A DNA stretch of 64,000 nucleotides from an uncultured Thermoplasmata archaeon (GCA_963719945.1 CAVRDX010000004.1:32001-96000), one strand, 5' to 3'. Positions 8,004 through 59,253 are shown, counted from the first letter of the stretch. Made by a program: numbers and translations. The notes: generated by a model from the letters alone, not told the origin.

Positions 8004-10226
8004 ATGGTGAAGAAGCAAGCGGATGGGATCACCCTTCGGGTCGCGAGAGCACACCACCAATCCGAAGTGGGCCTCGGAAGAGCTCGAATAGACACCTTGA
8101 CAAGGAAGGACCTCTCAGTCGATGTTGGAGAGATCATCGAGATCGTCGGCAAGAAGAGGACGGCGGCGAAGGTGTTCAGGGCAGCTCATGAAGACGAGGG
8201 CAAAGGGATCATCAGAATCGATGGCATGATACGCGGGAACGCAGCGGTATCCATAGGCGAGAACGTCGTCGTGCAGAAAGCCGATGCTCAGCCGGCCCAG
8301 AAGATAGTGGTCGCTCCCAAAATACCTCATGGAAAGCGCGTCAGATTCGGCCAAGGTGTCGAAGGATTGTTCAAGAAGGGGCTGCTCAACCGGGCCGTAA
8401 TCAAGGGTGACGAGATCATCATCCCCAATATCGCTCTGATGGGAGGTTTTCTCCCCTTCATGGTCGCATCGACGGCACCCAATGGGATAGTCCAAGTGAC
8501 TGAGCAGACGGAACTGTCTGTGAAGACCGAGCCGATTGAGATCACCGACCTCGCCCGCCCCTCTGTCACCTATGAGGACATAGGAGGGCTGGAGGGGGAA
8601 TTGGAGAGAATCCGGGAGATGATCGAGCTCCCGCTGAAACATCCAGAGGTATTCACAAGGCTTGGCATCGACCCGCCTAAAGGAGTTCTCCTCTATGGAC
8701 CGCCAGGCACTGGCAAGACATTGATTGCAAGAGCTGTGGCGAATGAGGCAGGGGCCAATTTCTTCTCGATACAGGGACCGGAGATAATGTCCAAATTCTA
8801 TGGTCAGAGCGAAGAGAAACTCAGAGAGATATTCGCTGAGGCGGAGAAGAACGCTCCATCCGTGATCTTCATCGATGAGCTGGATTCGATCGCCCCTAGG
8901 AGGGACGAAGTCCAAGGAGAGGTCGAGAGGAGAGTCGTCGCTCAGCTCCTGACCTTGATGGACGGGCTCACGAGCAGAGGTAATGTCATAGTGATTGCAG
9001 CAACAAACAGGGAGGATGCAATCGATCCTGCCCTGAGAAGACCTGGAAGATTCGATAGAGAGATCGAGATCGGAGTACCTTCCACGGCTGGACGTCAGGA
9101 GATAATGCAGATCCATACGAGGGGAATGCCCATCGATGAGACTGTCAATCTGGACCACATCGGAGAGATGACCCATGGCTTCGCAGGCGCGGATCTGGCC
9201 GCACTTGCTCGTGAAGCTGCCATGCGATGTCTGCGGAGATACCTGCCCGATATCGATCTTGGAAAGCCTATTCCCGCAGAGATACTCGAGAAGATGAAGG
9301 TGACGGGACAGGATTTCGCGGATGCCAAACGAGACATAGAGCCAAGCGCCATGCGCGAAGTGTTGATCGAGATACCGAACGTCACATGGGAGGATGTCGG
9401 AGGACTCGATGATGTGAAGAAGGAGCTGCACGAGGCCATCGAGCTGCCCATCGAAGATCCAGAGTCGTTCAAGAGACTGGGTATCAGACCGCCTAAAGGG
9501 GTGCTTCTGTTCGGCGCTCCAGGAACTGGAAAAACCCTGATTGCACGTGCGATCGCGAACATGTCCAACACGAATTTCATATCCATAAAAGGCCCAGAGG
9601 TCATGTCCAAATGGGTCGGTGAGAGCGAAAAGGCCGTTAGGATGATATTCAAGAAGGCGAAGCAGGTCTCACCGAGCATCGTCTTCTTCGACGAGATCGA
9701 TGCGATCGCTCCGAGGAGAGGAAGCCACAACGATTCGGGAGCCACGGAGAGAATCGTGAACCAACTGCTCACATCCATGGATGGGCTGGAGGATATGGAG
9801 AACGTCTTCGTCATAGGAGCGACCAACCGGCCAGACATGATCGACCCCGCACTCCTGAGGCCAGGCAGGTTCGACAAACTGCTCCTGATCCCGATACCGG
9901 ATGAGAAGGCTCGGAGAAAGATACTCGAGGTCCATACGAAGAACATGCCTCTCGAGGGCGTCGACCTGGCCCCAGTCGCGAAGCGGTTGGAGGGGTTCGT
10001 AGGCGCGGACATCGAGAATCTCTGCAGGGAGGCGGCACTCGTTGCGCTCCGGGAGGACAAGAAAGCGGACAAAGTCCGCTTAGAACACTTCGAGAAGGCG
10101 TTGACCACTGTCAGGGCGTCGACCAGCCCAGAGACGGTCAAGTTCTACGAGTCGCAGGCCCAGGAGATAAAGACCGCAATGTCTAAGAAGAGAAAAGATG
10201 ATAATGGGCTTGGCTACTACAGATAG
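8004..10226 (+). CDS. cdc48: CDC48/VAT AAA+ ATPase
   Basis: N-domain, two AAA modules ([16 protein letters not shown]; DELD, DEID; RPGRFD), and C-terminal HbYX motif GYYR. Confidence 0.97.
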
Positions 10227-10237
10227 CCGGAGATGGG

Positions 10238-10483
10238 ATGTCGATGCGCAAATTCATAACCGAGCTCAAGGGCAAAACGGTAATGACAAACGATGGCCAG
10301 ATACTCGGCATGATTGAGAACTTCATGATAGACACGAAGACTGGTGAGCTTCAGAATGTTCTCGTGATCCCTGCGGAAGAGATCGAACCGAGATTGTTCA
10401 AGACCGATGCCCAGGGAAGACTCGTGCTTCCGTTCAGCGAGATGAAAGCTGTCCGCGATGTCGTCGTGATGAACATCGCGTAA
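10238..10483 (+). CDS. PRC-barrel domain protein (CdpB-like)
   Basis: L.GKTVMTNDG..LG.IENFMID..TG.L...LV.P...LPFSEMKAVRDVVVM is the single PRC-barrel pattern. Confidence 0.85.
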   Translation: MSMRKFITELKGKTVMTNDGQILGMIENFMIDTKTGELQNVLVIPAEEIEPRLFKTDAQGRLVLPFSEMKAVRDVVVMNIA

Positions 10484-10544: not shown

Positions 10545-13130
10545 TCACTTCTTCAGAGCCTGCCTCTTCGCGCGCATGATACGTGATATAAGTTCGGATT
10601 TGGTTCCCCTGGAACTTATCCCGAACGCATCGCATATGGCCTCCAACTCGGTCTTCCGCTTCTTTCGGAGGTTCTTCTGTGTCAGCTCGGCCATGTCGAG
10701 AGAGGATACATCGATACCTCCGACGATTTCCAGCTGCGGAGGATGGACGGGATCCTCGGTCGCGACCGATCCGCTGACCGGCCTGGAGGGTGCCGACTCC
10801 GCTCTCTTAAGGTTCGAGGATGCGTCCCCGAACTTCGGAGCCAATCTCAGCGCTTCCTTCAGGGAGACCTGGGCTGCATCCATCTTGGACATGCGCATGA
10901 GCACGATGCCTTTGTTGTTGTATCCCTCAGGTGTCTCGGCCAATCTGATGGATTGCTCGAATGAGCTGAGCGCTTCCGAAAGCATGTCCAATGTCAACTG
11001 AGCGAAACCTTTGTTCGTCATCGCGACAGTGGATGGGGCTATGAGCAAGGATTCGTCGAAGCATGCGACAGCCTCCCTCATCCTGTCCCTCTTGTAGAGT
11101 ATGCAACCCCTGTTGTTCCAAGCAGCTGGATTGCTCTTCCTGTGCTTGATGGCCCGGTCGACCTCAAGGCTCGCCTTCTCGAACTCGCCTTTCTTCAATA
11201 TGACGACACCCAGATTGTTGCGAGCCTCCGATCTATCCAAAGGCAAAGCAGCGGCGCGTTCGAACGCCTCAGCAGCACCATCTAGATCGTCACATTCGAG
11301 TTTGGTAAGGCCGCGATAATTGAGCAGCATTGCGAGGTTCTCAGCTGCAAGGGCGTCATCTATTTCCTCTATCGCCTTTGCAGGGTCGCCACTGTGACGG
11401 GCTTCGATGGCAGCCAATGCGTAGCCTTGCCATCCCGTGGAAGAGCCCCGGAGCGCCTCGCTAAGCTTGTGGACCTTCTCCCATTCGCCCACCTCCATGA
11501 GCGCATTGTGCAAATTCATCAATGCAGGGACGTATGACCCGTCGACCGATACAGCGTGTTCGTACGATCTTATTGCGGCCTCGATCTTCCCCTGTCGGAA
11601 GAGGACGTTTCCAGCGGCGGTAAGCAGGCTTGGGTCCTCGCCCTCCAACCGGAGGGATTTACCCAGGAATTCGAACGCTTCCTCATACCTGCCGAGGAGC
11701 AGGAGGAGCTGGGCACGGTCGCCGTAGAGTTCCTCCGCAAGCTGCTCAACCTTGGGTTCCTGGACACGAACGACCACATCCTCGGCCATAACTGGTGTAG
11801 GTGTCTCCGGCACGACTTTGACAGGAATCTCTGAAGCTGTCGAGAAGATATCTTCAACGATCCTGGGCACTTCAACGAATTGCTCGGCAATCTTCTGCTT
11901 CACTTCCCCAAGTGCCTTCCTGGCATCGATATAGTCCGGGTCGAGCTGAAGGGACTGCTCGAATGCTGAATTGGCCTGTGTGACTTTGCCGAGCTTCTTG
12001 GAGACCATTCCCCGGAGATACCAACCCTTGGGGTACTCCGGCCTGAATCTCGTGACTTGCGTGAATGATTCGAGGGCTTCCTCGTATCGTCCTATCGTAT
12101 ACAGCAGGTTGCCTTTGTTGATCCACGCCTCGACATAATCATGTTTGAGCTCGAGCGCACGGTCGTATGATTCAAGAGCTTCGGTCTGCCTGTTGAGCGC
12201 GTGAAGGGTGGCTCCCTTATTGTTATGGACCTTCTCCAGGCGATAGTTGATCTTGAGCACCTTGTCGTATGTGACCAGTGCCTCCTGGTATCGTCCCAGT
12301 CTGTGCAGGGTGGATCCTTTGTTGATCAAGGCCTTCTGCATCATAGGGTTGTAGAACAGGGCCTTGTCGTAGCACATTATCTCTTCGGTGTATCTGGAAA
12401 GCGCGAAGAAACAGTTGCCGAGGGCGAACCAGGTCTCATCGCTCTCTGGCAGGAGTTCCAAAGCGTGCTTGTAACACTCGAGCGCCTGCTCGTGGTATCC
12501 CATCTCATCCAGAGTAACTCCCTTGAGTCGCCAGGGCACATCGTAGTTCTCATCAACCAGTATGGCGAGGTCGAACGCCTCAAGAGCGCGCATGAAATCC
12601 TTGCCCGCAAGTGCGTCGTATCCCGCCTTCATCGCATCCTCGAGCCTTTCTCCGGAGATGGCCGGGCGTTCGACCACGACCTCCTCGGGTATCGAGGATG
12701 TGATTTGCAGGACCTCCTTGTCCAGGTCGAATCTGCGGAGTATGGCAATGAGTTTCGTTCCGTCTGCGAAGCCGATGGAATGCTCACCCATGAGCTCGAC
12801 AGCCTCGCCAAGAATGGAAGCCGTCGTAAACACCAGGGCGGATGATGCCCCCGTCTTCTCCATGTAGGAAATCAAACTCTCAATATCGCCTCTTCCCAAC
12901 GGCTGCTCCCGTCTTGAGAAAAGGACAGCGTACCTGGTATCGTCGGATCGGTGGATGCAATCCGCGATCACGAAAGTCTCCCTGAGTCGGCTCCTGGACA
13001 TCTTTAGCTCCAGATATCCGAGGACCTTCTCCACCAAGTTGCTGAACTCCGGGTCAGGGAGGTTGAGGACCGCGCTGATGATCCTGTCATCTGAGCGTTC
13101 GTCAAGAATCTTATCCAGTTCGACCATCAC
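10545..13130 (-). CDS. TPR-repeat protein with N-terminal Mrr-like domain and C-terminal SAP motif
   Basis: Many 34-aa TPRs (AWINKGNLLY..GRYEEAL..F). N-terminus resembles Mrr_cat. C-terminal KTELEAICDAFGISSRGTKSELISRI matches SAP. Confidence 0.85.
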   Translation of the reverse strand: MMVELDKILDERSDDRIISAVLNLPDPEFSNLVEKVLGYLELKMSRSRLRETFVIADCIHRSDDTRYAVLFSRREQPLGRGDIESLISYMEKTGASSALVFTTASILGEAVELMGEHSIGFADGTKLIAILRRFDLDKEVLQITSSIPEEVVVERPAISGERLEDAMKAGYDALAGKDFMRALEAFDLAILVDENYDVPWRLKGVTLDEMGYHEQALECYKHALELLPESDETWFALGNCFFALSRYTEEIMCYDKALFYNPMMQKALINKGSTLHRLGRYQEALVTYDKVLKINYRLEKVHNNKGATLHALNRQTEALESYDRALELKHDYVEAWINKGNLLYTIGRYEEALESFTQVTRFRPEYPKGWYLRGMVSKKLGKVTQANSAFEQSLQLDPDYIDARKALGEVKQKIAEQFVEVPRIVEDIFSTASEIPVKVVPETPTPVMAEDVVVRVQEPKVEQLAEELYGDRAQLLLLLGRYEEAFEFLGKSLRLEGEDPSLLTAAGNVLFRQGKIEAAIRSYEHAVSVDGSYVPALMNLHNALMEVGEWEKVHKLSEALRGSSTGWQGYALAAIEARHSGDPAKAIEEIDDALAAENLAMLLNYRGLTKLECDDLDGAAEAFERAAALPLDRSEARNNLGVVILKKGEFEKASLEVDRAIKHRKSNPAAWNNRGCILYKRDRMREAVACFDESLLIAPSTVAMTNKGFAQLTLDMLSEALSSFEQSIRLAETPEGYNNKGIVLMRMSKMDAAQVSLKEALRLAPKFGDASSNLKRAESAPSRPVSGSVATEDPVHPPQLEIVGGIDVSSLDMAELTQKNLRKKRKTELEAICDAFGISSRGTKSELISRIMRAKRQALKK

Positions 13131-15004
13131 TCATCCCCTCCGCCGAGAGTTTTCAGCCACTTCGCAGCTTCCCTGTTGGTCGAATCCAGCCTTACGGCCT
13201 CCTCGAGACACTTGCGTGCTTCATCCTGCATTCCGATGGCATTCAGTGCGATGCCCTTTCTGCCGAGAGCGTATGAGTCGTCTTGGTCAAGTTCCAGGAA
13301 CCTGTCGTATGCCTCCACCGACCTGCGATGCTTCTCCTTCTCGAACAGGATGTCTGCCTTCAACAGCCATGAATCCTTATCGCGCGGCTCCAGCATGTTA
13401 TACTTGTCCAGGCATTGTATCGCAGCGCCCCAACGACCCATCTCGCGCATCGCTTTAGCCTTTCCTAACCATGCACGTGGATAGTTGCCATTGATCTGCA
13501 AGGCTCTTGAATAGCTCTCATCGGCACCGCTGACCTTGTTGTTCTTGAGCAGCGCGTCGCCCATCAACACCCATGCATCGATCTGCCTTGGATCGAGTGA
13601 TACGGACTTGCTGAAGTACTGAACAGCTGCCCCCCATTTGCCTTCCTTCTCAGCCAGGACGCCTCGCCAATACCACGCGCGGGGATCGTTTCTGTTGTTT
13701 TCGTAGAAAGCGTGTGCGACATGGTCTGCTCGGGCCAGGTCGTTTGTCTTTACAAGGGATTCGATCAGTGTCAATTGTGCATCCACGGAGCCGGGTTCTT
13801 CCTGAAGAATGTGCTCCGCCATCTGTATCGCCGAATCGTAGTTCCCCGATCTGAGCGCTTCCCGAGCAAGTTCGGCAGGATAGGATTCGACTTGGATCCT
13901 CTCTCCTTTCGGTTCCTCAGCGATGTGTATGAAATGCCTCGGAGGCGCTCCAACCGATGTCTCGGCGGATGCCTTCTTCAATTCGTTGATCAGGTCTGTC
14001 ACTTTCTGGTCCAGGTCAGGCGTTCTCGCCATCACCCTCTGACGCTCGGCCACTGAGGCATCCTCAGTCCTGCCCAGCTCGTGCAGAACAACAATGATGT
14101 GATCGTAAGCTTCTATGAATTTTGAGTCCAGAGAAAGCGACCTGTTGAAGCAATCGAGCGCCTCCTGGAGCTTGTTCATGTCCCTGAGAACCCTGCCTTT
14201 GAGGACCCACAATCTCGGTGTCTCCTCAAGCGCCAGGGCGTCATCTATCCGTGCCATGGCATCCATAGGGTTCCCGAGTTCGAGATGAGACTTGGCCAAG
14301 GATTCGACAATCTTCCTGTCGTTGGGGAAATGCTTGAGGGCGTTGGATAGATGCATCTCCGCGTCTGCCCAATCGCCAGCATCGACCGCGAGCATGCCCA
14401 TGTTATAGATCGCTATTGAGCTGAGGTCGTCGGTCTGGGTGACCCGAGCCATGTAATCCCTTGCTCTCGACCTGAGCAGCTTCTTCTTCGAGTCGGCCCA
14501 TTCTTTGGATGCCGTCCTCATCAATATTCCGTGAAATGCGTACCAGTAGACGAGACCCATGCGCAAGTACAAGTCGCTCATGCCCTCGTTGGGATAGAGT
14601 TGCTCCGCCTGCTCCACCTTCCGAATTATAGTAGCGATCGTCTGCGCAGCATCTTCTGTGATCAATATGAAAGGGTGGTCGAACTTGAGAGGGACGCCGA
14701 GGTGCGCCAGTATCGTATTGCATTGTTCGTAGAACCCTTTGAGCTCCTCCCGAGTCATGCCTTCGACACCGGTCTCAGAGACCATCTTCTGCAAATCGAT
14801 TGACGGGATGCATATCGCGTCTGAACAAGAGGTAGGGCCGAGAAGCATCGTGGCGGACCCTTCCGAGCGCATCCTCTGAAAAACGCTCCGGCCAATTAAT
14901 GACGGGTTCAGAAAGAACCGAGGGTCTTCGAAAGAAGCGTCGGCGCATGCATCACAGAGGAGCGGCCCCTCCTCGCACATGCAACCACATCTGAGACAAG
15001 CCAC
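13127..15004 (-). CDS. TPR-repeat protein with N-terminal Zn ribbon
   Basis: CLRC...CDAC at the N-terminus and two TPR blocks. Its stop overlaps the start of the downstream TPR gene. Confidence 0.85.
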   Translation of the reverse strand: MACLRCGCMCEEGPLLCDACADASFEDPRFFLNPSLIGRSVFQRMRSEGSATMLLGPTSCSDAICIPSIDLQKMVSETGVEGMTREELKGFYEQCNTILAHLGVPLKFDHPFILITEDAAQTIATIIRKVEQAEQLYPNEGMSDLYLRMGLVYWYAFHGILMRTASKEWADSKKKLLRSRARDYMARVTQTDDLSSIAIYNMGMLAVDAGDWADAEMHLSNALKHFPNDRKIVESLAKSHLELGNPMDAMARIDDALALEETPRLWVLKGRVLRDMNKLQEALDCFNRSLSLDSKFIEAYDHIIVVLHELGRTEDASVAERQRVMARTPDLDQKVTDLINELKKASAETSVGAPPRHFIHIAEEPKGERIQVESYPAELAREALRSGNYDSAIQMAEHILQEEPGSVDAQLTLIESLVKTNDLARADHVAHAFYENNRNDPRAWYWRGVLAEKEGKWGAAVQYFSKSVSLDPRQIDAWVLMGDALLKNNKVSGADESYSRALQINGNYPRAWLGKAKAMREMGRWGAAIQCLDKYNMLEPRDKDSWLLKADILFEKEKHRRSVEAYDRFLELDQDDSYALGRKGIALNAIGMQDEARKCLEEAVRLDSTNREAAKWLKTLGGGDE

Positions 15005-15072
15005 GCATTACCTCCTCATTATGCGATATGGGTCTAGTAATATAATCATAACGTTCTCGCTTTCATCTGCGT

Positions 15073-16638
15073 TCAGCACAATGGCCTAGACATATAATGC
15101 CCTTTCCTGTCGTATCCGAGCCCTCTATAATATCCTCTGGCACCGACTCCGCTCGTCACGAGCAGCTCGTCGTACCCACTTCCGGATGCAATTGTCTCGC
15201 ATTCTCGAAGTAGGCTCTCACCCAACCCTCTGTGCTGCCATCGATCTCCCGACTCCATACCGATGGGAACCATTTGACCATAGACATGGAGTTCTCTTAC
15301 TAGGGCGTGGTTACTATATCCGTCGGATGGAAATCTCAACCGGGCATAGCCGACCAGAGCGTCTATTGATGGCAGCTCGTACGAAATGAAGAATTCCCTA
15401 CCGCGTGACGCGGAATATTCGATCTTTTTGAGTACTGGGACTTCATCGCTGGTCGCCTGGCCTCTCATGTTCACGTGGCCAATCTCTCGACATCTGATAC
15501 ACCGACATCGCGAATCTTCTGAGGAGAGCCTCTCATGAACAAGTTCCCTGAGATGGCTCTTCTTTATCCCGGCCTCTATCAGCTGGACCGGTATGTCCCG
15601 TTGAATCCTCAGGATCCTCACCCATGGAGGGATTTGCCTCTTCACCTCGGAGAGCATCCTTGTGCCATCCTCAATCGAAAACGGTGAATATTCGCCCGAG
15701 GTCCAGAGATCATACAGGTCTGTCCCCTTGACGACAAGAGTCGGGTATATCTTCAGCATATCTGGCCTGAACCTATCATCCTCGAATAAACGCTTGAATG
15801 ATTCGATGTCCTTTTCGAAATTGCTCCCTGGAAGGCCAGGCATCATGTGATAGCATATCTTGAGACCAGCATCCCTAGCCCTCTCCGTGGCATCGACGAC
15901 CTCACGAACGCCATGCCCTCTTTTGACCCCGATCAACACATCATCATCGAGGATCTGTACTCCGAACTCGACCTTGGTCGCACCGAGACGCATGGACCTG
16001 TCCAACTGTTCCTTGTTGAACCAATCTGGTCGGGTCTCGACGGTGAGACCCACACATCTCGATTCGGCGGTCTCGTTCAACTCATGAGATGCCAGGATAT
16101 CGTCGGAATCACGGCCGTTCATGGCATCGAAACACCTTTTGACGAACCATTCCTGATACTCGGATGGTCGCGATGTGAAGGTGCCGCCCATGATTATGAG
16201 ATCGACTTTGTCCGTCCGGTGACCGATCGCCCTGAACTGCTTCAATCTGGCCTCGGTCTGTCTGAAAGGATCGAACTCGTTCATCGTTGCCCTGAGTGCA
16301 GCCGGCTCCCTGCCAGTGTAGGACTGAGGGCTGTTGTTTGAGACCCCGCCAGGACAGTACGAGCATCGTCCGTGCGGACAGTCGAAAGGACTGGTCATGA
16401 CAGCAACAGGGGCGACGCCGCTAAGCGTTCTGACGGGTTTATTTTTGAGAAGTGGCTCGACGAGGTCCCTCAACTCGTCAGGAACATGCTCCAGAATCTC
16501 GTGATTTGTTGGAACCCTCGAGAGGCCGTGAAGCTTGCAGAGCTCGGTCTTCAGCTTCATTATGCCCTTGCGGTCGCTGACCGCCCCTGATATTATCGCC
16601 TCGATGAACTCCTCGTAATAGTCCACGTCAAGCTTCAC
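15073..16638 (-). CDS. elp3: tRNA uridine(34) 5-carboxymethyl modification radical SAM/KAT enzyme Elp3
   Basis: RTLSGVAPVAVM, CPHGRCSYCPGG, ETRPD, LKIYPTLV, RELHVYG, QHRGLG. Confidence 0.96.
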   Translation of the reverse strand: MKLDVDYYEEFIEAIISGAVSDRKGIMKLKTELCKLHGLSRVPTNHEILEHVPDELRDLVEPLLKNKPVRTLSGVAPVAVMTSPFDCPHGRCSYCPGGVSNNSPQSYTGREPAALRATMNEFDPFRQTEARLKQFRAIGHRTDKVDLIIMGGTFTSRPSEYQEWFVKRCFDAMNGRDSDDILASHELNETAESRCVGLTVETRPDWFNKEQLDRSMRLGATKVEFGVQILDDDVLIGVKRGHGVREVVDATERARDAGLKICYHMMPGLPGSNFEKDIESFKRLFEDDRFRPDMLKIYPTLVVKGTDLYDLWTSGEYSPFSIEDGTRMLSEVKRQIPPWVRILRIQRDIPVQLIEAGIKKSHLRELVHERLSSEDSRCRCIRCREIGHVNMRGQATSDEVPVLKKIEYSASRGREFFISYELPSIDALVGYARLRFPSDGYSNHALVRELHVYGQMVPIGMESGDRWQHRGLGESLLRECETIASGSGYDELLVTSGVGARGYYRGLGYDRKGHYMSRPLC

Positions 16639-16684: not shown

Positions 16685-16984
16685 TCAAAGGAACATCATA
16701 TCTTCATGGATGTCAGAGGGGTCGTCTCCGGTCTTGGGTCTCTTCCCCTTGGGAGCTATCTGCACATCCGACATCAGAAGCCTGATGTATGTCTTATCAG
16801 GAAGATGATCCAGTGATATGACGCCTTTGAGAACCAGAGACTTGAGATTGCGGTCCAGCGTGTCCGGACGCATGCGAAGCTCGTCTCGGACCTCCTCTAC
16901 GGTGACGGGATACCAATCCTGCAGTATCTTGACTATCTTCGTCTCGAACTGGTTCAATTTGACTATCATGAACTTCAGAGTCAC
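16685..16984 (-). CDS. Small winged-HTH protein
   Basis: IVKILQDWYPVTVEEVRDEL.M....LDRNLKSLVLKGVISLD is a wHTH pattern. Operonic with its neighbours. Confidence 0.7.
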   Translation of the reverse strand: MTLKFMIVKLNQFETKIVKILQDWYPVTVEEVRDELRMRPDTLDRNLKSLVLKGVISLDHLPDKTYIRLLMSDVQIAPKGKRPKTGDDPSDIHEDMMFL

Positions 16985-17268
16985 CCGAAGTAGACCGCGT
17001 TGCTGTCCTTATCCTTGACTTCCTCTTCCTTCTCGGCTTTGAGGACGTCTATGGATATGATCATGTGAGAGGGAATCAGTCTCATGAACTTCTCCTTGCT
17101 CTCACCAGAGGTCTTCTCCACCTCCATCACCAAAGCTGTATCGTGCGCGAGGGCGGCGTATCCCTTGAACACACCGGTAGTCTCCATCGGCTTCTCCCTG
17201 GATTCCAGACTCTTTATCCTGTACAATGATCCCTGAGTCAACACGATCGTTTCATCTTTTTTTGCCAT
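16981..17268 (-). CDS. Hypothetical beta-rich protein, possibly Sm-like fold
   Basis: Overlaps both neighbours. Pattern TGVFKGY..ALVMEV...RLIPSHMIISIDVL. Confidence 0.65.
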   Translation of the reverse strand: MAKKDETIVLTQGSLYRIKSLESREKPMETTGVFKGYAALAHDTALVMEVEKTSGESKEKFMRLIPSHMIISIDVLKAEKEEEVKDKDSNAVYFG

Positions 17269-17731
17269 GCTTGTCACCCTTCTTGGTCTGGAGCTCCTGT
17301 AGATGGTCTATCGTCTTGCGATAGTTCTCCATCGCGACCTGAACATGGGCTTCCGTGAAATTCCAAGCCTTGCTCAAGTTGCCATATCTTATGCGGTAGC
17401 CCTTCTTCTTCGATCCATCCAGCTGATCGACGTTAATCTCCTCTAGGAGGTCGAACCCTTTCAACTTGTTTATGTGACGGTATACCGTCGCCTTGGTCGT
17501 CCCCAACGCGACCGCCAAGTCCTCGACGACCCACGCTTTGTCCATACGACCGAGGAAGAACTCCATTATCAGACGATATGGGACACTATCCCTGATGTCC
17601 GTGACATCAGTCTTAGGGTCGTAGCCCTTCGGAAAATATCCTATCTGGTTCAGGAATAAGATGGCGACCTCGTCAATGTCGCTCAGCGGGGTCAGTGGGG
17701 TGTTGCTGACGACATTTAGCTCGAAGCTCAT
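17252..17731 (-). CDS. Winged-HTH transcriptional regulator
   Basis: WVVEDLAVALGTTKATVYRHINKLKGFDLLEE HTH. First gene of an apparent operon ending in elp3. Confidence 0.8.
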   Translation of the reverse strand: MSFELNVVSNTPLTPLSDIDEVAILFLNQIGYFPKGYDPKTDVTDIRDSVPYRLIMEFFLGRMDKAWVVEDLAVALGTTKATVYRHINKLKGFDLLEEINVDQLDGSKKKGYRIRYGNLSKAWNFTEAHVQVAMENYRKTIDHLQELQTKKGDKHGKKR

Positions 17732-56465: not shown

Positions 56466-58226
56466 TTGGCTGAAGCAGAGGCGAAGATTGAATATGACAT
56501 ACCCGTGAAAGCCCCCAAGCAGCCAATGGGTGCCCGCATCTGGCGCGGATACATCAACGCCGTAAGCAGACTCAAATCAGAGCCGATCAAAGTCAGATCT
56601 GCCAAGGGTGCTGCTGCTCGGAGGAAGCAGTGGAAGGACGGGAAGGGTTCACCATACACCGAGATCCCACCCATCACAGACCCAGATATCCAGGAGATGG
56701 CGTTCTATCCAGTGGTTGATCCGTTCAGCTATGTGAGAGTAACTTACAACGCAGTCACCAGTGATTACATATTGAGCGTGATCGAGCCAGTGCTCACCGA
56801 AGATGAAGAAGCGTTGATGAAGAAGATCAAGAACACCTTCGAGATGACCCTCGATTACGAGTGGGAGAAACTCGACCAGATGAACAAGAAGACCTATCTG
56901 CAGAGGAGTGTTGATAGCTACATCAGGTCGAGGGGGATCAGGCTCGAACCGATCTCGGAAGATAAGGTGAAGTACTTCATCACCAGGGATTTCGTCGGAT
57001 ATGGCCCCATAGATGCATTGATGAGCGACATCCATGTCGAGGACGTGTCTTGCGACGGCGTCGGCATCCCGCTGTTCCTCTTCCATAACAAATTCGAATC
57101 AATCAAAACCAATATCGTGTTCGAAGATGAGGACGACCTCAACTCATTCGTCATATCACTTGGCCAGAGATGTGGAAAGCAGCTCTCCGTCTCGAACCCA
57201 ATACTCGATGGTACGACACCGGAAGGGCACAGAGTCCAGGCAACTTATGCCAGAGAAGTGACCACGAGGGGTGCCTCATTCACAATCAGACGGTTCAAGG
57301 AGAAACCGTTCACGCCAGTCGAACTGATCAAGTACGGCACCGCGTCACCAGAGATAGTTGCGTATCTGTGGCTCAGTGTCGAACATGGAGAATCGGCCAT
57401 CATAGCCGGAGGCACAGCGAGTGGAAAGACGGCGACGCTCAACGCCATGTCGCTATTCATACCTCCTGGTGCCAAGGTCGTCACCATGGAGGATACTAGA
57501 GAGATCAACCTGCCTCATGAGAACTGGATACCTGGCACGACAAGATCTGGCTCCGGGGAGAGGGGACCTGACGGAAAGACCGCCGGGGAGATAGACATGT
57601 ACGACCTCGTCAGGGCGGCATTGAGACAGAGGCCGAACTACATCATCGTCGGAGAGGTGAGAGGAAAGGAAACCTACACCATGTTCCAGGCGATGGCGAC
57701 AGGTCACACGACCTTCTCGACCATGCACGCGGATTCCGTCAAAGGCATGGTCAACAGATTAGAGAACCCGCCGATCAACTGTCCCAGGATTCTGCTCACT
57801 GCCCTCAGGAATGTCATCATCCAGACACATGCAAGAGTCGGAATGGACATGGTCAGGAGAATCAAACAACTCATCGAGATCGTCGGTTTCGAACCAGAAA
57901 CGAACGAACTCATCAGCAACACGGTGTATGAGTGGGATCAGGCCACTGATAAGTTCATCTTCAAGGGTCACAGCTTCCTGTTCGACAAGATCATGGAGAT
58001 GAAGAACCTAACACATGAAGAGCTGCTGCAGGAATTCGAGCGGCGTGTTGATATCGTGAAATACATGGTGTCCAAGGACATGTCTAGCCATGTGGACATC
58101 TGGAACCTCATCAAATCATACTACAAGGATCCCAAGGCGGAGGCGGAAAGGGTTCGAAAGGACATGCGCCCAGCGGCCGCTCAGAGCGGTCTGAAGATGC
58201 CGACAGGAGGTGCTGAATCTGCCTGA
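56466..58226 (+). CDS. Type II/IV secretion (PilB/FlaI/VirB11-like) ATPase 1
   Basis: EDVSCDG, GGTASGKT, EDTRE, ALRQRP, VGEVRG, TGH, STMHA. Confidence 0.93.
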   Translation: MAEAEAKIEYDIPVKAPKQPMGARIWRGYINAVSRLKSEPIKVRSAKGAAARRKQWKDGKGSPYTEIPPITDPDIQEMAFYPVVDPFSYVRVTYNAVTSDYILSVIEPVLTEDEEALMKKIKNTFEMTLDYEWEKLDQMNKKTYLQRSVDSYIRSRGIRLEPISEDKVKYFITRDFVGYGPIDALMSDIHVEDVSCDGVGIPLFLFHNKFESIKTNIVFEDEDDLNSFVISLGQRCGKQLSVSNPILDGTTPEGHRVQATYAREVTTRGASFTIRRFKEKPFTPVELIKYGTASPEIVAYLWLSVEHGESAIIAGGTASGKTATLNAMSLFIPPGAKVVTMEDTREINLPHENWIPGTTRSGSGERGPDGKTAGEIDMYDLVRAALRQRPNYIIVGEVRGKETYTMFQAMATGHTTFSTMHADSVKGMVNRLENPPINCPRILLTALRNVIIQTHARVGMDMVRRIKQLIEIVGFEPETNELISNTVYEWDQATDKFIFKGHSFLFDKIMEMKNLTHEELLQEFERRVDIVKYMVSKDMSSHVDIWNLIKSYYKDPKAEAERVRKDMRPAAAQSGLKMPTGGAESA

Positions 58227-59253
58227 AATCTCCGATGTCTTCATGAGAGTCGAAACCAAGAAGGGAGAGTACCTCAAAACGAAACTGACCCAGAGAGGGG
58301 AGGATATCGGGCCTCATGGAGTCCGATTGACCAAGGGTGCCGTCCCCGACTATGTCAGTTTGACCAATTATCAGGATTTCTCCTGGCGCATAATGGGCAA
58401 GTTCGCGAGCGATCGGATGACACCCGCCAATAACCAGGTCCTCGAAGAATCGCTCACCAAGGCCCATATGAAGATACGGGCCGAAGAGTACTATGCATAT
58501 GTACTCATGAGCACAGTCGTCGCGTTCATCATAGGAGTGGTCATAGCAGTGGTCGTCGGAATCATCCTCTTCGGGGTGATGGGCGTGTCATTGACACTCA
58601 GGATCATGATATCAGGTGCGGCGATCGGCCTGTTACCCGTTATGGCGTTCTTCATGCTTATGGGATCGCCTGGCGGAAAGGCAAAGTCCAGGGGCAGGGA
58701 CATCGACAAGAAGATCGCAGCTGCGATGAGCTTCATCTCTGCTATGGCATCAGCAGATGTCAACATTGATATCATATTCAAGGAACTTTCGAGGCAGACG
58801 ATCTACGGTGAGATCGCAGCTGAATCCTCGTGGATTACGCGTGATACGGAACTTCTCGGATTGGATATCTTGAGCGCCATCAAGAAAGCGGCCAAGAGGT
58901 CCCCATCGGCCAAGTTCCAGGAATTCCTGCAGGGAGTCATCACGACCTCCACATCCGGTGGGCAGCTCAAGCCGTACTTCCTGCTCAAGGCAGATGAATA
59001 CCAGAAAGAGAACAAGCTCGCCATGAAGTCCCAGATGGAGACACTGGGAATGCTCGCCGAATCGTTCGTCACAGTCGTCGTTGCTTTCCCTCTATTCCTT
59101 GTTCTCATCTTAGCGATCATGGCAATCGTAGGCGGAGGAGACTCGAGCATGATGATCACCCTCCTGTACCTTATCGTCATTGGAATGATCCCGATCTCGC
59201 AATTCGGATTCATATTTGTCATTTGGAACATGTCACAGGAAGGTGCGATGTAG
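58210..59253 (+). CDS. Type II secretion F-family (TadC/PilC-like) membrane platform protein
   Basis: LTKAHMKIRAEEY, YGEI..E, LGLDILSAI...A.RSPS..F.EFLQG, LGMLAE. Confidence 0.88.
   Translation: MLNLPEISDVFMRVETKKGEYLKTKLTQRGEDIGPHGVRLTKGAVPDYVSLTNYQDFSWRIMGKFASDRMTPANNQVLEESLTKAHMKIRAEEYYAYVLMSTVVAFIIGVVIAVVVGIILFGVMGVSLTLRIMISGAAIGLLPVMAFFMLMGSPGGKAKSRGRDIDKKIAAAMSFISAMASADVNIDIIFKELSRQTIYGEIAAESSWITRDTELLGLDILSAIKKAAKRSPSAKFQEFLQGVITTSTSGGQLKPYFLLKADEYQKENKLAMKSQMETLGMLAESFVTVVVAFPLFLVLILAIMAIVGGGDSSMMITLLYLIVIGMIPISQFGFIFVIWNMSQEGAM

Follow-up and report, generated by a model that had tools for sequence, protein, structure and literature searches.

The locus and its two genes

The stretch of DNA analysed here, called the window in the following, comprises 64,000 nucleotides (nt) from the genome of an uncultured Thermoplasmata archaeon (GCA_963719945.1, CAVRDX010000004.1:32001-96000). 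Two overlapping open reading frames (ORFs) on its minus strand, 10545-13130 (861 amino acids) and 13127-15004 (625 amino acids), encode a pair of tetratricopeptide repeat (TPR) proteins. The larger protein starts with a Mrr-like nuclease fold that lacks the catalytic motif and ends with a SAP domain, and the smaller one, its partner, starts with a zinc ribbon. In public databases both carry no other label than “tetratricopeptide repeat protein” or “hypothetical”, which agrees with an initial annotation of this DNA, made from the sequence alone, that knew no description of such an architecture.

The partner gene lies upstream and runs on the minus strand from a GTG at 15004 to a TGA stop codon at 13127-13129. 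The larger gene almost certainly starts with the ATG at 13127-13125, one codon inside its ORF, since most homologues have a non-start CTG in place of the preceding GTG and the public protein has 860 residues; in the remaining homologues the codon before the ATG is once GTA and in a few cases GTG. The ORF itself is as initially annotated, whereas the product has 860 rather than 861 amino acids, and the Mrr-like/TPR/SAP gene extends over 10545-13127 (minus strand, stop codon 10545-10547). Due to the ATG start, the overlap of the two genes is TGATG and not GTGA, and the stop codon of the partner gene and the ATG of the larger gene have one base in common. The junction (13125-13141, minus strand) consists of this TGATG (13125-13129) and a GGAGGGG (13135-13141) that sits 7 nt upstream of it, and the arrangement C-TGA-TG is found in most of the homologues as well. 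Upstream of the partner gene (15011-15051, minus strand) a TATA-like A/T-rich stretch (15038-15051) and a GAGGAGG (15011-15017) are putative signals within the 68 nt that separate it from the elp3 gene, and no oligo-T run is present in this gap of the window.

Overall, 37 homologues of the larger protein were aligned, with lengths of 798-875 amino acids and identities of 52-90% over the whole protein and 44-92% over the N-terminal 165 residues. The named relatives all derive from metagenome-assembled genomes (MAGs) of uncultured Thermoplasmata, e.g., UBA10834, UBA9653, and RBG_13_57_23. All ratios of nonsynonymous to synonymous substitution rates (dN/dS) given here come from a comparison of the source genome with one congener. 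For the larger gene dN/dS is 0.09 overall and 0.05-0.07 in the folded domains, which are thus held by strong purifying selection.

A Mrr-like nuclease fold without the catalytic motif

Residues 2-136 of the larger protein (12723-13127, minus strand) form a Mrr_cat-like domain of the PD-(D/E)xK fold without the (Q/E)xK triplet, as judged by Pfam, AlphaFold2, Foldseek and hhalign. When the N-terminal 166 residues were scanned alone, the Pfam model Mrr_cat matched residues 26-130 with 27.5 bits and covered profile positions 6-114 of 115. The scores obtained were 27.5-28.2 bits with a cut-off of 21 bits, and 26 of 30 family members match the same model. Nine of the 30 also match NA-iREase1 (PF22722, “NACHT-associated inactive Restriction Endonuclease 1”) at E <= 0.01, and the window's own protein has no match to this model. 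With the 30 family sequences as input, AlphaFold2 modelled the domain with a predicted local distance difference test (pLDDT) score of 90.8 and a predicted template modelling (pTM) score of 0.83. The modelled topology is alpha-alpha-beta-beta-beta-alpha-beta-alpha-beta and contains the alpha-beta-beta-beta-alpha-beta core. In a Foldseek search against the PDB the top matches were MspJI, EcoT38I, AF1548, and AspBHI (E 1e-4 to 6e-4, probability 1.0), and the N-terminal domain of Rpb5 ranked below these Mrr nucleases (E ~2e-3). At the level of sequence, a profile of the domain had no match among PDB sequences, and a single-sequence phmmer search against 1.8 billion representatives gave 13 matches with no canonical Mrr among them. 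The Mrr-type N-terminus that had been proposed is therefore confirmed by profile, model and fold comparison. Besides, a similarity confined to the final 30-55 residues of the domain recurs 6-7 times in each of two unrelated proteins of 582 and 549 amino acids, and their Pfam matches, CENP-C_C and BNR_2, do not explain it.

The region of the catalytic motif reads VLFSRR, and the triplet is replaced without exception in the 37 close homologues, in which the motif F-x-I-A-(D/E)-C-x-H-R-P-D-G-K-K-Y-V-V-F-F-S-R-R is found. H60, Y67, S72, and R73 are invariant in these sequences, and E11, S13, and D14 are invariant too. Upon hhalign alignment to E. coli Mrr (annotated K-12 record), Q219-A-K221-R222 falls on L-F-S-R. 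The initial annotation had assumed the register F-S-R, whereas hhalign places QAK on L-F-S, but its statement that the triplet is lost holds in either case: the catalytic lysine is replaced by serine, or by arginine in the alternative F-S-R register, and neither register contains an E/Q or a K. The E/Q position is occupied by a hydrophobic residue in the family. The GxD loop had been called unrecognisable, which is true in part only, as the first acidic residue, D57, is D/E throughout the home family and is replaced in the distant family f8. The (Q/E)xK triplet is missing from every homologue, from which we infer that the domain is catalytically dead.

Alternatively, the domain might still be a nuclease with a relocated active site, composed for example of E11 and D14 of the first helix, D/E57, and H60. 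Active-site migration is known within the PD-(D/E)xK superfamily, and the invariance of E11, S13, D14, H60, and Y67 together with the retention of D/E57 in the 37 close homologues would be in line with it. The superfamily is indeed diverse (PMC1189080). However, these residues are not kept in the wider family: in family f8 the acidic residue 57, H60, and the ERSD motif are all absent, and both the domain and the gene pair persist there despite this loss. We therefore regard a relocated active site as very unlikely.

The Mrr-like domain is kept and is not decaying, since its dN/dS is only 0.054. Because it is acidic, with an isoelectric point (pI) of 5.0, the dead fold is more likely a predicted protein- or ligand-binding or oligomerisation module than a nucleic-acid binder. 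The view of the protein as a nucleic-acid-binding scaffold is thus doubtful for the nuclease fold and would apply to the basic C-terminus alone (pI 11.1), which is described below.

TPR arrays, linkers and the SAP tail

Two TPR arrays make up most of the larger protein, as initially annotated and as seen from the Pfam matches. The first (residues ~166-415, 11886-12635, minus strand; TPR_1 and TPR_2 matches) is the best-conserved part of the protein, with a mean majority fraction of 0.83, a dN/dS of 0.050, and many invariant residues. It is followed by an acidic middle linker (residues 416-468, 11727-11885, minus strand, pI 4.1) with a conserved block around E462, E467, Y469, G470, and D471, and by the second array (residues ~469-775, 10806-11726, minus strand; Pfam TPR, dN/dS 0.067). 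The subsequent proline- and acid-rich linker (residues 776-818, 10677-10805, minus strand) is unconstrained, with a dN/dS of 1.24 and a majority fraction of 0.41, and varies in length across the alignment of the 37 homologues.

The protein ends with a SAP domain and a basic tail (residues 819-861, 10548-10676, minus strand), for which dN/dS drops again to 0.064 and which contain 14 K/R in 43 residues. In the whole protein the Pfam SAP match (residues 821-853) has 23.7 bits and is just under the cut-off of 23.9 bits; it is above the cut-off when the last 81 residues are scanned alone (27.8 bits) and in the genome-wide search (28.4 bits). Since the helix-G-helix motif is also kept in 36 of the 37 homologues, with G842 and T843 invariant, the assignment as SAP proves right. 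Judged from its composition, it is predicted to be the sole obvious nucleic-acid binder of the pair. No SAP match above the cut-off was obtained in any of 14 control genomes. In the source genome itself there is a second match (24.0 bits) in an ORF of 83 amino acids on contig 2 at ~57650-58380 (L105:2151-2883, plus strand), and the following ORF of 178 amino acids carries two further SAP-like helix motifs; these two ORFs may be one gene with a frameshift or may encode a small protein with several SAP domains.

The zinc-ribbon/TPR partner

The partner starts with a Cys4 zinc ribbon of the form C-x2-C-x10-C-x2-C (C3, C6, C17, C20; 14939-15004, minus strand), of which all four cysteines are invariant in 19 partner sequences, short forms included. 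The translational coupling to an upstream zinc-ribbon and TPR gene that had been proposed initially, with the TGATG overlap, is supported. Short partners give weak DZR_2 matches, and a giant relative gives zinc-ribbon/DZR matches. The subsequent head domain (residues 23-195, 14420-14938, minus strand) has no Pfam family. Its AlphaFold2 model (pLDDT 86) consists of a small beta-hairpin followed by helices that merge into TPR-like repeats, and Foldseek returned only TPR proteins for it, with E >= 2e-3. G56, P57, G103, and R148 are invariant in the head. The remainder of the protein (residues 196-625, 13130-14419, minus strand) consists of TPR arrays with Pfam TPR matches. An enzymatic domain was found in neither protein of the pair.

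Giant ORFs of ~2,300 amino acids (2,290-2,304) are present in other classes of the Thermoplasmatota (L106:5246-15925 on contig 22 of genome G004, L107:4956-11870, and L108:4526-11398). They have a zinc ribbon and a partner-like head at the N-terminus and at least 50 TPRs, one of them carrying 53 TPR_1 stretches. The G004 giant is followed by a TPR protein of 1,259 amino acids that is headed by a Schlafen AlbA_2 domain (44.5 bits) rather than by a Mrr-like domain, and the two other giants stand alone. That the AlbA_2 head is a diverged Mrr-like domain was rejected, since hhalign gave a probability of 0.2 and Pfam assigned SLFN_AlbA_2. Zinc-ribbon-headed TPR proteins are thus a broader family of the Thermoplasmatota, in which the head of the second protein is swappable.

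Distribution and gene order

Within the order of the source organism, 47 of 49 genomes, including all 12 of high quality, have a single copy of the N-terminal domain. The two genes are adjacent in 20 of 20 loci, 14 within the order and six in distant families, so that the linkage in relatives is established. Within the order, all 14 loci have the arrangement HTH(orf159)-orf98-(orf99)-Elp3-ZnTPR-MrrTPR (HTH, helix-turn-helix), facing PRC-barrel-Cdc48-PorG. In a sample of 401 genomes of the phylum, a profile of the N-terminal domain gave strong matches (E < 1e-30) only in the source genome and in nine genomes of the families f8, f10, and f11. The strong matches of the partner profile (E < 1e-44) come from precisely this set of nine and are adjacent to those of the N-terminal domain; hence, the two genes co-occur strictly. 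As a side observation, a genome of family f7 (G096) has a Mrr_cat-TPR gene at another location and no partner gene.

The pair in f8, f10, and f11, which belong to the same class as the source organism, is diverged. There, the partner has only 257-297 amino acids, comprising the zinc ribbon, the head, and about two TPRs, and in five of six loci its gene overlaps or directly adjoins the larger one, the start being uncertain in the sixth. An example is QLH75025.1 and QLH75024.1 from a MAG labelled Methanomassiliicoccales archaeon. Since these versions have a short partner and no SAP domain, the ancient core of the module is a zinc-ribbon head protein together with a dead-Mrr-TPR protein, to which the long TPR arrays of the partner and the SAP domain were added later, in this order of archaea.

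No restriction system and probably no defence system

The initial annotation had already noted that there is no methylase or mobile context, and indeed no methylase, integrase, tRNA, or flanking repeats were found near the pair in the window. The window's protein is the only Mrr_cat match in the whole source genome. A restriction-modification system was therefore rejected, given the absence of a methylase, the single Mrr_cat protein, and the loss of the catalytic motif. PADLOC returned only generic TPR and PrimPol-TPR matches, plus mREase_IV at 17.5 bits. A defence island was rejected as well, since the pair is a syntenic core gene set with no PADLOC match beyond generic TPR.

The pair might nevertheless be a sensor in defence or conflict, in which invaders are recognised by the TPR arrays and the response, be it a signal or an action, comes from the nuclease-derived domain, as in the inactive restriction endonuclease (REase)/TPR modules of STAND proteins. 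The nine family members matching NA-iREase1 would fit this idea, and so would the AlbA_2-headed TPR protein behind a related giant in another class, as such head swapping is seen in conflict systems. However, no nucleoside triphosphatase (NTPase) domain is among the best 25 of 38 Pfam families per protein, no effector is present, and the neighbours are Elp3 and PRC-barrel/Cdc48. Nor does the pair behave like defence genes: it belongs to the core genome, is single-copy and fixed in position in 47 of 49 genomes, and has a dN/dS of ~0.05, only generic TPR matches in PADLOC and no mobile context. Invader sensing, which had been considered initially, is thus not supported, and a conflict sensor appears highly improbable. 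In conclusion, the pair is not a restriction enzyme, and it is unlikely to be a defence system.

The neighbourhood: Elp3, PRC-barrel and Cdc48

Directly upstream of the partner gene lies the gene for Elp3 (15073-16638, minus strand), a tRNA-modification enzyme that combines radical SAM and GNAT parts, with the Pfam domains ELP3_N, Radical_SAM, Radical_SAM_C, and Acetyltransf_1. This co-directional adjacency had not been remarked in the initial annotation, and it is found in all 20 loci with the pair, with a gap to the partner gene of 27-74 nt. Further upstream, at 16685-17731 (minus strand), are the three small genes orf159, orf98, and orf99, of which orf159 has weak HTH_11/HTH_20 matches, orf98 belongs to no family, and orf99 has a weak winged-helix match. 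Across the whole class, orf159 keeps 60-98% identity, and it adjoins Elp3 even in a genome from which the TPR pair is absent. On the other side, the genes for Cdc48 (8004-10226) and a PRC-barrel protein of 81 amino acids (10238-10483, 44.1 bits) are on the plus strand (8004-10483) and converge on the pair, as initially described; they are kept beside it in all 20 loci. The combination of PRC-barrel and Cdc48 genes is known and widespread among archaea, and archaeal PRC-barrel genes are often located near genes for tRNA and translation functions (10.1101/2023.03.28.534520).

The conserved position beside Elp3 raises the possibility that the pair is an archaeal accessory scaffold of Elp3, analogous to the eukaryotic Elongator helpers. 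In eukaryotes the C-terminal solenoid of Elp1 docks Elp3, and Kti11/Dph3 serves as a metal or redox partner. By analogy, the TPR proteins would dock Elp3 like the Elp1 solenoid, the dead fold and the SAP domain would hold the tRNA, and the Cys4 knuckle would be a metal site or redox partner. This would be consistent with the same-strand position directly downstream of Elp3 in every locus with the pair, an adjacency which spans identities of the Mrr-like domain down to 20-25% and of Elp3 of ~55%, with the absence of an oligo-T run from the window's 68-nt gap, and with the tendency of PRC-barrel genes to lie near tRNA and translation genes. However, Elp3 is present in five of five tested genomes of the same class that lack the pair, none of which has the partner; among these five, G096 has only its unlinked Mrr_cat-TPR gene, and in another one Elp3 abuts Cdc48. 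Moreover, the giant relatives of the partner head in other classes are not located beside Elp3, the partner gene is preceded by a TATA-like element and a Shine-Dalgarno-like sequence of its own, and the likeness to Elp1 and Kti11 is an analogy drawn from general knowledge. An accessory role for Elp3 is therefore rather unlikely, and the stricter version, in which the pair would form an Elongator-like complex that docks Elp3 and presents tRNA to it, is more doubtful still. Outside eukaryotes, Elp3 is not known to have Elp1-type scaffolds and Kti11-type helpers; if this version is true, the pair would be their prokaryotic counterpart. Another “zinc ribbon plus large scaffold” beside Elp3 is seen in G096, where a double-zinc-ribbon protein of 455 amino acids and a coiled-coil protein of 1,289 amino acids with RNase_Y_N-like repeats are encoded downstream of it (L101:2223-7472).

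Another possibility, based on the second neighbour, is that the pair serves the VAT-like Cdc48 unfoldase and the proteasome as an adaptor or platform that recruits substrates, with DNA-bound proteins as possible targets. Binding of C-terminal peptides is common among TPR domains, the Cdc48 of the window ends with ...GYYR, and Cdc48 and the PRC-barrel protein converge on the pair in each of the 20 loci. However, the convergent orientation means that the genes are not one operon, PRC-barrel and Cdc48 are frequent neighbours in archaea without any TPR pair (10.1101/2023.03.28.534520), and Cdc48 stays beside Elp3 even in one genome without the pair, G061 of family f2. G061 has neither the TPR pair nor a PRC-barrel gene, and only ~3 nt separate its convergent orf159-Elp3 and Cdc48 genes (L099:7432-11766). 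The backbone synteny is thus independent of the pair, and the pair and the PRC-barrel gene either entered an older Elp3/Cdc48 block or disappeared from it. Synteny with Cdc48 was accordingly rejected as proof of function, and the idea of a Cdc48 adaptor, put forward initially, is weakened to an adjacency and seems distinctly unlikely. The C-terminus of the window's Cdc48, ...GLGYYR, resembles the hydrophobic-Tyr-X tail by which archaeal AAA unfoldases dock on the 20S proteasome.

Proposed role of the pair

The anatomy given in the initial annotation, including fold, SAP domain and linkage, is correct. With a probability of roughly 0.5, we assume that the pair is a lineage-specific, vertically inherited, and constitutively needed two-protein TPR platform. 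The two proteins would be made in fixed proportion and join through their TPR surfaces into a hetero-oligomer, in which the acidic dead nuclease fold would act as a non-catalytic binding or oligomerisation module and not as a general nucleic-acid binder. In this order of archaea, the SAP tail could tether the platform to DNA or structured RNA on a flexible leash, as in Ku70, and the strongly conserved concave face of TPR array 1 might hold a conserved client peptide. Because of the fixed position directly downstream of Elp3 and facing PRC-barrel/Cdc48, the client would most likely belong to tRNA modification, translation, or protein quality control.

Several points weigh against this proposal. 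The inactivity of the nuclease fold is deduced from the loss of the motif alone, and D/E57, H60, Y67, E11, and D14 could form a non-canonical site. The SAP domain is absent from the distant members in f8, f10, and f11; it is thus an addition specific to this order, and tethering to DNA would not be the core of the module. Given these SAP-less members and the acidic nuclease-fold domain, nucleic-acid binding as a whole may be peripheral. Finally, since the HTH-Elp3/Cdc48 synteny also exists without the pair, the neighbourhood is weak evidence for the nature of the client.

If the proposed platform exists, it would be an unstudied core complex of two proteins with together ~1,500 residues in a widespread branch of uncultured Thermoplasmata. 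A restriction-enzyme fold retained as a non-catalytic module of a housekeeping protein would then be a case of exaptation, and a SAP domain, which is rare in prokaryotes, is noteworthy in an archaeon. Furthermore, the position between Elp3 and PRC-barrel/Cdc48 offers the hypothesis that, in archaea, tRNA modification is connected with cell-cycle proteins and with the unfolding of proteins. For genome annotation, this Mrr_cat match should not lead to the assignment of a restriction system.

Comparison with known systems

The N-terminal domain has fold and Pfam family in common with the Mrr-type REases EcoKMrr, MspJI, AspBHI, EcoT38I, and AF1548. In contrast to them, its (Q/E)xK triplet is replaced, the pair contains no reader domain for modified DNA, and the domain heads a TPR scaffold of 700 amino acids that is encoded by a core gene and not in a mobile restriction island. 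A similar fate of the fold is seen in the N-terminal jaw of Rpb5 of eukaryotic RNA polymerases, which is likewise an inert REase-like fold with a structural role. However, the Foldseek match to Rpb5 is weaker than those to true Mrr nucleases, and there is neither a sequence relationship nor a polymerase context.

The C-terminus of the larger protein resembles that of Ku70, in which a small basic SAP helix-extended-helix also ends an unconstrained linker. The SAP domain of Ku70 on its flexible linker is thought to add DNA affinity (PMC11936186). Since the core proteins are unrelated, the likeness is restricted to the logic of tethering.

The same three kinds of modules are combined in one chain in the repair nuclease FAN1 (UBZ-SAP-TPR-VRR_nuc), where SAP, TPR, and PD-(D/E)xK domains all contact DNA (PMC4201288). 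In the larger protein, however, the order is reversed (nuclease fold, TPR, SAP), the nuclease fold is Mrr_cat with no VRR_nuc match and is probably inactive, the TPR arrays are far longer, and a zinc-ribbon-TPR partner is obligate, so that homology ends at the domain types. Proteins with NA-iREase1 (PF22722) likewise carry an inactivated REase fold as a non-catalytic head on repeat arrays, whereas the pair has no NACHT/STAND NTPase and its genomic behaviour is that of housekeeping genes. FAN1 and the inactive REase heads of STAND proteins are thus the closest analogues of the pair, which itself belongs to neither of them.

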